From positions 1 through 50,528 of the forward strand of contig JBAZEV010000002.1 of the NCBI GenBank assembly GCA_041653695.1: a stretch of DNA of 50,528 bases, given 5' to 3'. This DNA is from Candidatus Bathyarchaeia archaeon. GTDB taxonomy: Archaea; Thermoproteota; Bathyarchaeia; Bathyarchaeales; Bathyarchaeaceae. A program made the position numbers and the translations under genes. Each line of letters begins with the position of its first letter. Positions within the stretch are counted from its first letter, which is position 1. The notes under the pieces are model-generated. The model was not told where the DNA came from. It searched no databases and saw nothing but the letters and a program-made list of their open reading frames with translations. Shown here piece by piece: positions 1-32,665 of the stretch.

Positions 1-960
1 TGTGAGATGAACTGTGTATACTCCAACACTGGCATCGGTCAACTTGAAGCAGTCTGTGAAAAAACTCCAACTGTTTATGTTAAAACGAATGCCCCGCAGG
101 TTTTAGACCGCGAACTATCTACCGTGAAGACCCGCGGCGTACTGAGTATGGGCGTTGCCACTGATGTTTATCAGGCTGCGGAAGAAAAATTTCAGGTTAC
201 CCGTCAGCTTTTAGAGGTAATGCGGGACCACCGTTGCCCTTTTGCGTTGGGTACTAAATCTGACCTTATTCTTCGGGACTTGGACGTTATTTCTGAGGCA
301 GCAAAAAATGTTTGGTGTTGTGTTTCGTTGAGTATTGCTACGCTTGACGAAAAATTGGCACAGTTGCTGGAACCAAATGCTTCGCCTCCAAAAGACAGGT
401 TAAATGCGGTGAAAAAACTTGCAGACGCTGGTGTGATGGTTGGTATTTGGGCTGCGCCTCTGCTTCCATATGTTACTGATACAAACCAAAACATGTCAGA
501 TGTTATCGAGTCTGCTGTGGCAAACGGCGCAAAATTTGTGCTTGGTGTAAGCACGGATTCGCGGAACCCGGTTCGTTTTAAACAGTTTTTGGACCAAAAC
601 TTTCCACAGTTGGTTTCAAAATATGAACGTTTGTACAGCGGGGTTGAACGTTCTGGGGGCGGGTTTCAAACATATTATCCTGACGAGGCTTACTTGTATG
701 ACTTGTATAAGCGGTTTGTTTCAGTTTGTCAACAGTATAATGTTCAACATTATATCCCCCATTTTCACACCCGCAGACAAGCATGGCTGTTTTTCCTGCG
801 CAACTTTGGGCACTTCAAGGGAACACCCGCGTTTGAGGCAACTCAGCTTCTTAACTACCTTTCTCCATCTAAGGAGTTACTTCAAACAGTTCGCATCCGT
901 GCTAAGAATAATCAATTAACCAATAGTTTTCTCAAAGTAATGGGCTATTTTCCTCACTAA
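1..960 (+). CDS. radical SAM protein, SplB-like (COG1533-type); 5' end lies outside the window
   Basis: The ORF is open to the window edge. The first residues, CEMNCVYS, sit where the CX3CX2C cluster motif of this family lies. The body shows the TKSDLILRDLD and EPNASPPKDRL signatures typical of the family. Confidence 0.6.
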   Translation, partial: CEMNCVYSNTGIGQLEAVCEKTPTVYVKTNAPQVLDRELSTVKTRGVLSMGVATDVYQAAEEKFQVTRQLLEVMRDHRCPFALGTKSDLILRDLDVISEAAKNVWCCVSLSIATLDEKLAQLLEPNASPPKDRLNAVKKLADAGVMVGIWAAPLLPYVTDTNQNMSDVIESAVANGAKFVLGVSTDSRNPVRFKQFLDQNFPQLVSKYERLYSGVERSGGGFQTYYPDEAYLYDLYKRFVSVCQQYNVQHYIPHFHTRRQAWLFFLRNFGHFKGTPAFEATQLLNYLSPSKELLQTVRIRAKNNQLTNSFLKVMGYFPH

Positions 961-4680: not shown

Positions 4681-4935
4681 AGAAAAAAATTAGTAACGGC
4701 GAAAGAAAAACTGAGTGCTGAGAAGGCTTTGGGACGAGTCCGTATTTGATCACAACGGGGGCGAAGGTTTTTGAGGTTTTTACTCCTTCCCTTTTACGCT
4801 CATCTCATTGCCTCAGCAAAACTCTAGTTTTCGCCTAGGAATAACAAACAAAACAAGTTTGCCCTATAAAAATCTGCTTCCTTTCTCCGCTTTACACTTT
4901 TTTAGCTAATTATTATCAAAAATACTTGAAAGGGA

Positions 4936-5159
4936 TGGTGGGGCCGGCCGGAATTGAACCGACGACCTTTACCCGAAACAGATCATTTTCTGTCCCTACG
5001 GGTTTCTCCTCGCTCCAGAATTTCGTCATCCCATATTCTGGTCAGCAAACCCTTGCTTATTTCTGGAGCCCTTAACGGTTGGCACCGTTTGCCGGTACGA
5101 CTATCGTCATCCCTTTCTAGCGCCCGTCAAAAGACAAGGCGTGGCTAGACTACGGCCCC
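4936..5159 (-). tRNA. tRNA-Trp (anticodon CCA at 5066-5064) with about 147 nt of intervening sequence, modelled as five exons and four introns; CCA end encoded
   Basis: The reverse complement starts GGGGCCGUAGUCUAGCC. It ends AGGUCGUCGGUUCAAUUCCGGCCGGCCCCACCA, giving a 7-bp acceptor stem, a canonical T arm and A73. Predicted exons are 5159-5143, 5114-5103, 5071-5063, 5003-4998 and 4968-4936. Confidence 0.85.
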
Positions 5160-5247: not shown

Positions 5248-5368
5248 GATTGCCGGCCATAGGGCGTGGGATCCACCTGATCCCATTCCGAACTCAGAAG
5301 TTAAACCATGCTCCGTTTCCGGTGCTAGTGTGGTCTTCGGCCACGTGAACCCGGGAAAGCTGGCAATC
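5248..5368 (+). rRNA. 5S ribosomal RNA, not linked to a 16S/23S operon in this window
   Basis: The sequence contains GAUUGCCGGCCAUAGGGCGUGGGAUCCACCUGAUCCCAUUCCGAACUCAGAAGUUAAAC...GGGAAAGCUGGCAAUC. Helix 1 closes between 5248-5257 and 5359-5368, and the CCGAAC / AGUUAAGC-like loop motifs are conserved. Confidence 0.92.
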
Positions 5369-7031: not shown

Positions 7032-7934
7032 TTAGGTTAACACAACACACCCATCTTTCACTGCCATTATTGTGTACTCTTCTTGTGCAACCAGTTTTCG
7101 GCTTGACTCACCAAAAACGGGGTAACTAATTACAGCTTTAGATGACAACAGTTCAGAAAAAGCTGCTTTGTAGTTGCTAGATTTTGCAAAATCTGATAAC
7201 CAACGCTCTGCAAATGGTAGTGTTTGGAAATTTTTTTTGATGTGATTTAACATTTGTTTGGCGTACGGGTTCTTGAGTGTCTTGTTTTTTTGGTAACGGA
7301 AAATGTATGATTCAGGTAAATCGTTCACTTTTCCATCTGCGTCGGGCAGTGTCACGAAGGGTTCTACTCCGTAGATTTCGCCTTCTTTTATTCTCGATGT
7401 GGAGATGTTAAAGACGTTAGGTAACGACTTTCCTGCGTGTATAGTGTAACGCCTGATTAGGTGTCCCGTCAGGTTTGAAATTGGTTTAAATCCACGAGTT
7501 TTGATGACATTTTGAATTGTATTCCCAAACCTGCTTATTGAAAGTCCAGGCTGCATTATTTCAACTGCTTTTTGCAGGGCTTCTTCTGCGGTGTATACCA
7601 TGTTTTGGTATTCTGGGTCAAAACAAACCGTTGTAGCCGTGTCTGCGATGTAGCCGTCTATGTGGACGCCTATGTCGACTTTTACTAGTGCTTTTTCTGG
7701 GATTGTTTGTTTATCGTTGGGTGGTGAAGTGTAATGTGCCGCAATGTCGTTAACCGAAACGTTGCATGGAAACGCTACTTTGGCTCCTTTTTCACGGGTT
7801 AGCCCTTCCACCTTTTCACAGATGTCTATTATTGGCATTCCTTCTTTGACTGTTTTTTTGATTTCCACTCGGACTTCTCTTGCGATTTTGCCAGCGCGTT
7901 GATATTTTTGTAGCTCTTCTTCAGGAACTGCCAT
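7032..7934 (-). CDS. map: methionine aminopeptidase, type 2 (archaeal)
   Basis: MetAP2 motifs AHYTSPP, DIGVHIDGYIADTATT, HLIRRYTIHAGKSLP and AQEEYTIMV are present. The ATG at 7934 is preferred over the upstream TTG at 7949. Confidence 0.9.
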   Translation of the reverse strand: MAVPEEELQKYQRAGKIAREVRVEIKKTVKEGMPIIDICEKVEGLTREKGAKVAFPCNVSVNDIAAHYTSPPNDKQTIPEKALVKVDIGVHIDGYIADTATTVCFDPEYQNMVYTAEEALQKAVEIMQPGLSISRFGNTIQNVIKTRGFKPISNLTGHLIRRYTIHAGKSLPNVFNISTSRIKEGEIYGVEPFVTLPDADGKVNDLPESYIFRYQKNKTLKNPYAKQMLNHIKKNFQTLPFAERWLSDFAKSSNYKAAFSELLSSKAVISYPVFGESSRKLVAQEEYTIMAVKDGCVVLT

Positions 7935-8071
7935 ACTAATGCACGACAATCATTTACACTGTGGAAGGTTAAAAAGAGTTTAGGCGAAACGCGTTAACTT
8001 GTTTTGTTTTTCTTCCGTAAGCCTTAAACTTGTATAATATACCCGTTTAGCAAAAGGTGTGAACTCAAAAA

Positions 8072-9184
8072 TTGACTACTGCTGAAGACAAAAAATCTGT
8101 GCTTGACCCATGGGGAACAACTGTGGTTGACGACTACAATCACCTTTACGAAGAATTCGGCATACAAAAATTTGATTCCCTAATCCCAGAGATACCCGAA
8201 CCAAGCATGTACATGCGACGCGGCGTTATCTTCGGGCACAGAGACTTTGAACGCATCATTGCCACAATGAAACAAGGCGGAGATTTTGCTGTAATGAGCG
8301 GCATTAAACCAACCGGTGAATTCCATCTAGGAACCCTGATGACCGCCAAAGAAATCATTTATTTCCAGCAACAAGGCGCCCAAGCGTTTTACGCCATCGC
8401 AGACATAGAAGCCTACGAGGACAACAGGTTATCTTTTGAAGAAACAGAAAAAATAGCCGTTGGAAACGTGGCAGACCTTTTGGCGTTAGGTTTTGACCCA
8501 AAAAAAGGTCACATTTACAGGCAGTACAAAGAGATGCGTGTAAGAAATTTGGCGGTTCACTTTGGTGCGGGCGTAACATTAGCCACAATGAAAGCCATCT
8601 ACGGTGAACGCCATATTGGGCTTTATCTTTCAGCTTTGATTCAAGCAGGAGACATACTGTTGCCACAACTCAAAGATTTTGGTGGACCAAAACCAACAGT
8701 TGTTCCCGTAGGCGTAGACCAAGATGCACATCTTCGTTTGACAAGGGATTTAGCGAGTAAGTTTCATAAGAAATTCAAGTTTGTTCCACCGTCTTCGACG
8801 TATCACAAGATTTTGAAGGGATTGGACGGTTCGCCGAAGATGTCTAAACGAAACCCCATGAGTTACTTTACTCTTAACGAGACTCCAAAAGCTATTGGAA
8901 AAAAGATTGCCAGTGCATTCACTGGCGGCAGAGCAACCGTTGAAGAACAAAAACAGCTTGGTGGTGTGCCAGAAGTTTGCCCTGTTTACGAAATTGAGAT
9001 GTGCCACTTTGTTCAAGACGACAAACAGGTAGTTGAAACCTACAATTGCTGCAAATGTGGAAGTCTACTGTGTGGCGAGCATAAAGCGCGAACAAAACAG
9101 ATTGTCATGAACTTCGTTGAAGAGCATCAAAGGAAACGGGAAAAACTTGTTGACCAAGCACGCGAAATACTGGGCGTCAACTGA
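8072..9184 (+). CDS. trpS: tryptophan--tRNA ligase
   Basis: Class I motifs PTGEFHLGTL (HIGH) and KMSKRNP (KMSKS) are present. The archaeal TrpRS-type N-terminus DPWGTTVVDDY is present, and the C-terminal segment is Cys-rich. Confidence 0.9.
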   Translation: MTTAEDKKSVLDPWGTTVVDDYNHLYEEFGIQKFDSLIPEIPEPSMYMRRGVIFGHRDFERIIATMKQGGDFAVMSGIKPTGEFHLGTLMTAKEIIYFQQQGAQAFYAIADIEAYEDNRLSFEETEKIAVGNVADLLALGFDPKKGHIYRQYKEMRVRNLAVHFGAGVTLATMKAIYGERHIGLYLSALIQAGDILLPQLKDFGGPKPTVVPVGVDQDAHLRLTRDLASKFHKKFKFVPPSSTYHKILKGLDGSPKMSKRNPMSYFTLNETPKAIGKKIASAFTGGRATVEEQKQLGGVPEVCPVYEIEMCHFVQDDKQVVETYNCCKCGSLLCGEHKARTKQIVMNFVEEHQRKREKLVDQAREILGVN

Positions 9185-9299: not shown

Positions 9300-10808
9300 T
9301 TGGTGGCTGAACTTCGGGAAAATGAACAAAAAACGTTGCTTGCCCTACAAACATTGAAGGGAAAAGCACCCGTAGAGTTGATAGTGGATGCAAGCGGTTT
9401 GGCTCATGCCGGTGTTATGCGGGCGGTTCTTTTTCTTACTGAAAATAAGTTAATCACAACACATGAACAAAAACAGACAATAGTAAAGTTAACCGAAGAA
9501 GGCAACTACCACGCAAATAAAGGGCTTCCAGAACGGCGTCTTTTTAATTCATTGACCAAACTTGGCGGAGAAGCAAAAGTAAACTCCGTTGTAGCGGATG
9601 CATGTTTGGATAAACAGTTTGTTTCTGTTGCATTGGGCTGGCTGAGCCGTAAAGGCTGGGCAAAAATCGAGCAAGGGGCGCTTAAACCGTTGCAGACGCC
9701 TTCGCTTGGTGGCGACGAAAAACTGTTGCAGTTGTTGGCTGAAAAAAGTCCTTTAATCGTTGAGGACCTAAATGCCGAACTGCAAGACAGTGTTTCTGTT
9801 CTGAAGGGACGAACCCTTGTGGATGTTGAAGAGAAAACCCTACGTGAACTTGAGTTAACCCCTGACGGTTGGGCGTTAGTGAAAAAGGGGATTACTGTTC
9901 AAGAAGAGATAAGCCAGTTAACCCCCGAGCTTATCCGAACTGGAAACTGGCGGAACGTAAAACTGCGCCGTTTTGATGTAACCGCACCCGGTCCAGTAAG
10001 CTACCCAGGAAAGATACACCCTGTTCAGCAGATAATTCAACAGGTTAAAGAAATCTTTTTGGAGATGGGTTTCACCGAAATCAGAGGCGACATGGTTGAA
10101 ACCGCCTTTTGGAATTTCGATGCGCTGTTTCAGCCTCAAGACCACCCCGCACGCGACATGGTGGATACTTTTTATTTGTCTAACCCACAACAGGGTGAAT
10201 TACCCGAAAAAGCTGTTGTTGATGCCGTAGCCCAGACCCACGAAAATGGTTGGATAACAGGTTCCCGTGGATGGCAGTATTCTTGGAGTGCACAAGAAGC
10301 AAAGAAACTGGTGCTCCGAACGCACACGACTGCTGCTACTATCCGTTACTTGACTGAGCATAAGGAATCGCCAATCAAGGTGTTCTCTGTTGACCGTGTT
10401 TACCGCAACGAGAAACTGGACTACAAGCATCTTGCCGAGTTCCATCAAATTGAAGGAATAATTATGGACCAAAAAGTCACGTTGCGGGATTTGATGGGCA
10501 CCCTGAAAGAGTTTTACCAAAAACTTGGCTTAGAAAAAGTACAGTTTTGGCCCAGCTACTTCCCGTATACTGAGCCCTCTTTGCAGTCCACTGTGTATGT
10601 TCCAGAACTAAATAATTGGGTTGAACTCTGTGGTATGGGAATCTTCCGCCCAGAAGTTTTGGCTCCATTGGGTGTGAAACACCCTGTTTTGGCTTGGGGT
10701 GGCGGTTTGGAACGTTTGATACTTCTTAAACTGCACCTTGACGACATCCGGTTACTGTATAAGAACGATTTAGGTTGGATAAGGAGGAATCCAGTATGCC
10801 AACTATAA
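9300..10808 (+). CDS. pheS: phenylalanine--tRNA ligase alpha subunit
   Basis: Class II core motifs FQPQDHPARD, VLRTHTT and GMGIFRPEV...AWGGGLERL are present, with an archaeal N-terminal winged-helix repeat region. Confidence 0.92.
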   Translation: MVAELRENEQKTLLALQTLKGKAPVELIVDASGLAHAGVMRAVLFLTENKLITTHEQKQTIVKLTEEGNYHANKGLPERRLFNSLTKLGGEAKVNSVVADACLDKQFVSVALGWLSRKGWAKIEQGALKPLQTPSLGGDEKLLQLLAEKSPLIVEDLNAELQDSVSVLKGRTLVDVEEKTLRELELTPDGWALVKKGITVQEEISQLTPELIRTGNWRNVKLRRFDVTAPGPVSYPGKIHPVQQIIQQVKEIFLEMGFTEIRGDMVETAFWNFDALFQPQDHPARDMVDTFYLSNPQQGELPEKAVVDAVAQTHENGWITGSRGWQYSWSAQEAKKLVLRTHTTAATIRYLTEHKESPIKVFSVDRVYRNEKLDYKHLAEFHQIEGIIMDQKVTLRDLMGTLKEFYQKLGLEKVQFWPSYFPYTEPSLQSTVYVPELNNWVELCGMGIFRPEVLAPLGVKHPVLAWGGGLERLILLKLHLDDIRLLYKNDLGWIRRNPVCQL

Positions 10809-32599: not shown

Positions 32600-32665
32600 T
32601 GCCGTCGGAGTAACTCTGAGATTTCATCCTGAAACGTCAAGCTAATGCCTTTTCGTCATCCGGCA
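32600..32665 (-). ncRNA. candidate box C/D guide sRNA
   Basis: The minus strand reads UGCCGG-AUGACGA(C)-12 nt-UUGA(D')-loop-AGGAUGAAAU(C')-guide-CCGA(D)-CGGCA. A 5-bp terminal stem UGCCG/CGGCA closes it. TTTTATT lies about 27 nt upstream and a T-run lies downstream. Confidence 0.5.

Follow-up and report, generated by a model that had tools for sequence, protein, structure and literature searches.

A probable single-kink-turn relative of the tRNA-Trp intron guide for positions 34 and 39 in the canonical tRNA-Trp intron of Bathyarchaeia

To judge from its own sequence and that of its orthologues, the canonical intron of the tRNA-Trp gene described here is probably a reduced relative, built on a single kink-turn, of the intron guide that methylates positions 34 and 39 of archaeal tRNA-Trp. 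The gene lies in the first 50,528 nucleotides of contig JBAZEV010000002.1 (assembly GCA_041653695.1, Candidatus Bathyarchaeia archaeon), which is the whole stretch that was analysed and is referred to as the window. It is very likely, in our opinion, that the intron is homologous to the tRNA-Trp dual guide and under selection, and it is likely that it still directs both methylations. The initial annotation of this DNA had proposed a box C/D-type guide for riboses 34 and 39, kin to the euryarchaeal intron, which is borne out by the shared guides, register, GA dinucleotides and covariation; the main reading is supported with a corrected box assignment, and the reduced form is lineage-wide. Intron-guided methylation of tRNA-Trp at these two positions is the textbook case of a functional archaeal tRNA intron. 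To our knowledge, it has been shown only in Euryarchaeota and was suspected in Sulfolobus, and the pre-tRNA-Trp intron guide of Haloferax volcanii and Pyrococcus was reportedly described by Clouet d'Orval in 2001 and by Singh in 2004.

The host gene is a tRNA-Trp(CCA) gene with an encoded CCA, located on the minus strand at 4936-5159, and it is hidden from the usual tools by its four introns: ARAGORN reported no tRNA in the raw window, and the Rfam gathering search of the window missed the gene and gave a 5S rRNA as its sole match. The acceptor stem, the T arm and the encoded CCA are readable directly on the minus strand. When the gene was aligned to an orthologue that has the canonical intron only, an intron in the D-loop (5142-5114), one at 28/29 (5102-5072) and one of about 29 nt in the variable loop became apparent in addition to the canonical 37/38 intron, which carries the guide. 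After the four introns were removed in silico, ARAGORN called a tRNA-Trp(CCA) with the anticodon at position 34, and the canonical intron is therefore fixed at 5062-5004, with a length of 59 nt, just as had been proposed. Exon 3 consists of only 9 nt (GGGCUCCAG).

Full-length orthologues with four introns were found by BLAST of the gene against relatives in 23 of the 24 sampled genomes of the same genus; the matches in other families of the order are partial and centred on the canonical intron. The tRNA-Trp genes in those other families contain one to three introns, and the 28/29 intron, with its GUUAA end before GGG, is also found in other classes of the phylum, in the tRNA-Trp genes L252-L256. 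A groundwater metagenome contains the whole window. Contigs from RNA libraries of relatives carry the unspliced gene (4935-5124) with no splice joints, and are uninformative on splicing, circular introns and expression. As for the surroundings, the 5S rRNA gene (5249-5368, plus strand, 74.6 bits in Rfam) is divergently oriented and about 90 nt away from the 5' end of the tRNA-Trp gene, while the gene of the cognate tryptophan-tRNA ligase (8072-9184, plus strand) is about 3 kb away and is adjoined by the genes of the phenylalanine-tRNA ligase alpha subunit (9300-10808, plus strand) and a type II methionyl aminopeptidase (7032-7949, minus strand).

Read along the minus strand, the intron starts with a linker AAAUA (5062-5058), followed by the 12 nt of guide-39, AGCAAGGGUUUG (5057-5046), a CUGA box (5045-5042), the hairpin CCA-GAAUA-UGG that closes the kink-turn (5041-5031, with CC at 5041-5040 and GG at 5032-5031), a bulge nucleotide together with the second box, G-AUGACGA (5030-5023), the 12 nt of guide-34, AAUUCUGGAGCG (5022-5011), and the 3' end AGGAGAA (5010-5004). 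Within guide-34, UUCUGGAGC pairs at nine of nine positions with GCUCCAGAA (5069-5061), i.e., G31-G37 plus intron bases +1 and +2, and C34 (5066) is opposite the eighth base after AUGACGA, which is the fifth base upstream of AGGA (5010-5007). Ahead of CUGA, GGGUUU pairs at six of six positions with AAACCC (5005-5000), i.e., the last two intron bases plus A38-C41, and C39 (5002) faces the fifth base upstream of the box. The whole guide-39 target covers the last two intron bases and A38-U43 (4998-5005); because an A stands opposite G42, this duplex has only 6 bp in the window (7 with the mature tRNA), compared with 8 in relatives. All coordinates and pairings of the initial annotation, these two duplexes and their registers among them, were confirmed by direct reading of the minus strand. 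The minimum free energy fold of the anticodon arm with the intron consists of the guide-34 duplex and the CCA/UGG hairpin. The 12-nt spacers with the target in the fifth-base register are those of archaeal box C/D sRNAs, and the two internal boxes are able to form a kink-turn or K-loop with tandem G-A pairs, a 3-nt bulge and a G-C pair. As in the sR40 type (RF01297), the guide is located in the canonical intron of tRNA-Trp and its two duplexes cross exon-intron junctions.

The tRNA-Trp guides of many archaea were aligned by Grosjean (2008, Additional file 4; PMC2584109), and every one of them is arranged as box C, guide-39, D', linker, C', guide-34 and box D. In that alignment the Pyrococcus intron reads ...GGGUUUG CUGA ... 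UGAUGA, 4 nt, UUGGAGCC, CCGA, with UUGGAGC after the 4 nt, a hairpin separates D' from C' in haloarchaea and Methanosarcina, and the haloarchaeal box variants include UGACGA, at the place of C' as in the window, and CCGA (PMC2584109). The window intron matches the published tRNA-Trp introns base for base from guide-39 through guide-34: it is the same canonical intron with the order guide-39, D', C', guide-34, its GGGUUUG-CUGA is identical to that of Pyrococcus, both have C', 4 nt and YUGGAGC, and in both systems the duplexes span the exon-intron junctions. The permuted box order suggested earlier therefore falls away, since the published introns read C, guide-39, D', C', guide-34, D and the window is collinear with them; for a circular RNA the two readings would have the same topology, but we rejected permutation as a description of homology, the published introns having the same linear order. 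Similarly, CUGA and AUGACGA were correctly seen as a kink-turn-type pair brought together by the CC/GG stem, but their identity is D' and C' and not the terminal D and C.

In comparison with the euryarchaeal guide, the window intron is without the 5' box C, a conserved 3' box D and the terminal stem, which leaves one kink-turn, and its host gene has three further introns. It is also shorter than the H. volcanii intron (59 vs. 105 nt), and position 39 is C instead of U. The weak match to Rfam sR40 (RF01297), whose consensus is the Pyrococcus tRNA-Trp intron, covers 5070-5015 with 14.2 bits (E = 2.3), where the gathering score is 50. A scan of genomes of all species found the same core in tRNA-Trp introns of Methanomassiliicoccales, Thermoplasmata and Poseidoniales (Thermoplasmatota); unlike the window intron, the Thermoplasmatota introns have both terminal boxes, with 12 nt separating box C from D' and 12 nt separating C' from box D, and they are closed by a terminal stem.

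The core was searched for with the pattern CTCCAG, gap, UGAnGA, 3-5 nt, CUGGAG, and the reversed pattern was used as control. Of the 401 genomes of the class, 216 had matches, whereas the control gave 0-1 matches per genome. Most genomes of the same Bathyarchaeia order have kept the core (18/18 in family f1, 79/103 in f9, 19/25 in f11 and 10/11 in f6), the same layout is present in other orders of the class, and several further classes of the phylum have the core too, its position in tRNA-Trp having been checked there. The pattern matches of one family, located in coding sequence, were set aside as chance, and so were the inspected class-level matches from outside the order (L041-L052, L114), which fall within coding sequence. 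Altogether, 81 distinct orthologues were parsed in register, 61 of them from the own order, and their introns are 51-71 nt long. Bathyarchaeia-type tRNA-Trp genes are also present in records labelled Krumholzibacteriaceae bacterium and Nitrososphaerota, and two MAGs labelled Thermococci and Methanomicrobia have a similar intron with a minimal 3' end, GAGAA (the whole set being L198, DATKLC010000167.1, and L174, L196 and L208); these records may be mislabelled or misbinned.

A terminal box C (UGAxGA) between the 5' splice site and D' is present in none of the 81 introns. The window has only 5 nt ahead of the 12-nt guide-39, with no RUGAUGA one spacer upstream of D', and it has neither a CUGA 12 nt after C' nor a terminal stem. 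At the position of box D, 37 of the 81 orthologues have xxGA and the others are GU-rich (GUGA 15, AGGA 9, GUAG 9, GUCU 7, GGGA 7, GUCA 7, and others). The AGGA that had been taken for a degenerate D' does sit at the box D position, but the 4-mer is variable and in this genus it overlaps GGAG (5009-5006, together AGGAG at 5006-5010), the 3' strand of the central helix of the bulge-helix-bulge (BHB) splicing fold. What had been described as a degenerate second box pair is thus, across these orthologues, a pair with its terminal C absent and its D not conserved. In the shortest introns guide-34 abuts the BHB strand GGNG-AA, which itself produces a GA. The BHB fold is conserved: GGAG pairs with C32-C35 in the window, C32 pairs with G in 52/52 orthologues and U33 with A or G in 50/50, and C34 and C35 are paired in about two thirds of them. 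The guide fold and the BHB fold are mutually exclusive and must alternate. A second K-loop formed across the circularisation junction was also considered and was rejected, as the 5' linker has no GA-bearing C-like element. The lineage retains one kink-turn flanked by both guides.

The loss of the terminal boxes, together with the erosion of guide-39 in some lineages, is what one would expect if the intron were a decaying remnant, i.e., a descendant of a box C/D RNA that is functionless and whose likenesses are inherited or due to chance. However, orders and classes alike have kept the element, and the two duplexes and the stem of the hairpin contain many compensatory substitutions that arose independently; because of this covariation such a reading is very unlikely. 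The covariation was checked on a MAFFT alignment of 52 orthologues, taking the three helices and the G6-C1 box pair. The proposed pairs held standard pairs in 95.2% of cells, against 87.9% for shuffled and 33-51% for slid registers, and both sides had changed in eleven pairs, among them all four hairpin pairs; the complementarity first noted in a single genome is therefore conserved, with covariation, in its relatives. In the species-permutation test, 0/2000 permutations reached the observed score for guide-39, and the same was true of guide-34 over all rows.

Position by position, guide-39 bases N2-N9 are paired with -2 to 43 in 55-61 of the 61 orthologues of the own order. Two pairs of guide-34 that the search pattern does not fix, N9 with intron base +1 and N10 with +2, are paired in 81/81 orthologues with three pair types and in 77/81 with five, respectively. 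Compensatory changes in guide-39 include GGGUAU with AU|ACCCAU, seen in one subclade, and, in G293, CAGG with CCUG accompanied by A29, where the sister genome has CGGG with CCCG; further examples are UUC with GAA and UCU with AGA; the pair UCGGG with CCCGA was also recorded. At the level of single pairs, N3/-1 changed from U-A to A-U and, independently, from U-A to C-G, N7/41 from G-C to A-U with position 29 changing along, N2/-2 from U-A to C-G, and N9/43 from A-U to U-A. At the other junction, AA, AU, AGC, CUC and UUUA at intron bases +1 to +3 are matched by the guide ends UU, GU/AU, GCU, GAG and UGAA. The hairpin stem is paired in 93.7% of cells, and each of its four pairs changes on both sides (e.g., CCGC/GCGG, CUCC/GGAG, CACC/GGUG and UUCCC/GGGAA). 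Since some of the covarying target positions are intron bases, selection acts on guide pairing with the unspliced pre-tRNA.

The boxes themselves are conserved as well. The GA dinucleotides of D' and C' are invariant across the parsed orthologues, where the GA of D' was the anchor of the parse and is for that reason present in every parsed box. The forms of D' in the 81 orthologues are CUGA (36), CGGA (26), CAGA (7), UUGA (5) and others (7), and its first base pairs with G6 of C' in 52/52. C' has the form N-R-U-G-A-N-G-A in 81/81, partly by ascertainment.

We propose that the single conserved kink-turn (CUGA, hairpin stem and G-AUGACGA) would bind L7Ae and recruit Nop5-fibrillarin. The 12 nt before D' would pair across the 3' exon-intron junction with C39 at the fifth base from D', and the 12 nt past C' would pair across the 5' exon-intron junction with C34 at the eighth base, a register that is the same as in the euryarchaeal introns, where box D comes next. 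The substrate would be the unspliced pre-tRNA, in cis or as another precursor molecule, because the guides covary with intron bases that form part of the duplexes, and methylation would come first, with refolding and splicing after it, because guide pairing excludes the BHB fold. For efficient methylation, reconstituted archaeal box C/D RNPs are said to need both C/D and C'/D', a result attributed to Tran and co-workers in 2003, and therefore a guide with one kink-turn may be inefficient or may be active only at site 39.

The last point leads to a reading in which the guide is half active, so that only site 39 would be methylated, by the guide beside the intact D', Cm34 would come from a stand-alone guide or a protein enzyme, and the pairing with the anticodon loop would be kept for something else, e.g., for holding the precursor open or for timing its splicing. 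In line with this, guide-34 has no conserved box D after it, and in Pyrobaculum there is a separate sRNA, sR26, for C34 of tRNA-Trp (PMC6009581). On the other hand, conservation within the intron is highest in guide-34 with the C' box, which persists in lineages in which guide-39 is degenerate or lost (L080-L083, L112, L113, L115, L118-L120). The spacing between C' and CUGGAG, which the pattern allowed to be 3-5 nt, is 4 nt in 81/81 orthologues of the class and in the 147 own-order matches listed, which puts C34 at the classical position, and it is 5 nt in a few of the matches from other classes. Moreover, no other element with a C box, guide-34 and sRNA features, i.e., no stand-alone tRNA-Trp guide, was found in this 89%-complete genome. 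On balance we regard a half-active guide as rather unlikely, and prefer a guide acting at both sites.

The decay of guide-39 takes several forms. A subclade of the order (L080-L083, from G393, G374, G353 and G382) has it replaced by an unrelated ..UGAUUGC UUGA and retains the kink-turn and guide-34, and similar erosion occurs in several families of other orders. In family f20 (L111, L122-L125), D' is split by 1-2 bases (CUCGA, CUUUGA, CUUAGA, CUAGA); the guide is still complementary to -2..43, and the fifth-base register would shift by one or two. Two genomes have two tRNA-Trp genes each, G384 (L084/L085) and G327 (L086/L087), and in each of them one copy has a mismatched or lost guide-39.

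It could also be argued that the intron is structural or a chaperone only, i.e., that the kink-turn binds L7Ae and the duplexes assist folding of the precursor or set the order in which its introns are taken out, with no methylation involved. In favour of this, the precursor has up to four introns, and the guide and BHB forms are mutually exclusive and yet both conserved. Nevertheless, relatives with a single tRNA-Trp intron retain the same intron core, the fifth-base registers are exactly those of proven methylation guides, and the genome encodes the full methylation machinery, with adjacent Nop5 and fibrillarin genes plus L7Ae on contigs C11 and C148/C8, so that we consider a purely structural role unlikely and retain the methylation guide as the preferred reading.

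Whole-genome pattern scans for canonical box C/D sRNAs gave 1-15 matches, which is not above shuffled sequence. One stand-alone candidate is located in the window at about 32600-32665 on the minus strand, with a terminal stem UGCCG/CGGCA and the boxes C AUGACGA, D' UUGA, C' AUGAAAU and a degenerate D CCGA. It has a paralogue on the minus strand of contig C133, near index 1825 of the reverse-complement strand, with AUGAUGA, CAGA and guides that are nearly those of the first copy. If these candidates are real, they suggest that this genome may have sRNAs with AUGACGA and CNGA boxes.

Two further proposals of the initial annotation fared less well. A conformational switch had been suggested in which UUCUGG of guide-34 pairs locally with CCAGAA (5041-5036); this pairing is real, and the excised intron is predicted to fold in this way, but CCAGAA occurs in only 7/81 orthologues. 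An alternative pairing of at least 6 bp between hairpin and guide is present in 31/81, against 11 +/- 3 for shuffled hairpins, with registers that vary and sequences that are not independent, and the switch is weakly supported and suggestive only. The 10-mer GGGAUGACGA is indeed present in exon 2 (5113-5104) and contains AUGACGA, but it looks like a coincidence, being tRNA D-arm sequence (D-loop G18-A21, D-stem U22-C25, G26 and A27). An exon AUGACGA within 70 nt upstream of C32 occurs in 45/81 orthologues, distributed about evenly between introns with AUGACGA and those with AUGAAGA, and it is absent from G048 (f20), G041 (f13) and G053 (f22), which represent other orders and families with the same intron layout. 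We considered it as a surrogate box C and rejected this, since it would have to be offset by 3 nt from the guide register, is absent in these three genomes and does not track the box variant of the intron.

Sulfolobus, a member of the Crenarchaeota and in GTDB of the phylum Thermoproteota, belongs to the same broad lineage as the host. The tRNA-Trp intron of Sulfolobus solfataricus is a stable 65-nt circle, complementary to positions 34 and 39 and without consensus C and D boxes (Danan et al. 2012, PMC3326292), and it is the nearest published precedent for the intron in the window. The two differ in that no boxes were reported there, whereas the lineage of the window keeps the D'/C' kink-turn, and circularity and stability are features shown for the S. 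solfataricus intron. The stand-alone dual guides, namely Pyrobaculum sR26, which targets C34 of tRNA-Trp (PMC6009581), an sRNA of P. arsenaticum and one in an Anstonellales MAG (L138), have the same two guides in the same order, but they are independent, non-intronic four-box genes whose targets are spliced or intron-less tRNAs; the Anstonellales MAG carries the core in this stand-alone form. The product itself, Cm34, was observed in tRNA-Trp of H. volcanii, T. kodakarensis and S. acidocaldarius (PMC7668247). In the literature we found no description of the reduced form or of tRNA-Trp introns of Bathyarchaeia.

One might also compare the intron with snoRNAs. Some eukaryotic box C/D snoRNAs combine a single strong, consensus C/D kink-turn with a degenerate second box pair, and their second guide lacks a box that can be recognised. 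A single-domain snoRNA is cited in PMC7994747. The asymmetry is the same as in the window; however, the snoRNAs belong to a different domain of life, work with Nop56/Nop58 and have their strong motif at the terminus and not closed by a hairpin, and the likeness implies no homology.

To hypothesize further, and only tentatively, the intron could be a natural archaeal guide that works on a single kink-turn, and this form could be the usual tRNA-Trp guide in much of Thermoproteota. A single L7Ae-Nop5-fibrillarin platform, assembled on the hairpin-closed D'/C' motif, would then serve both flanking guides, and the junction helices of the pre-tRNA or the circularised intron would replace the missing terminal C/D motif.

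The claim made here is a modest one, because systems of this kind have been described before and the methylation is inferred. What is new is an element kept with covariation across Bathyarchaeia and the sampled other classes of the phylum. Its one kink-turn bears on how box C/D guides measure their targets and on whether two symmetric motifs are required, and the covariation of intron bases points to the unspliced precursor as the substrate. The guide would also give a concrete reason for retaining the canonical intron in a gene whose other introns are freely gained and lost.
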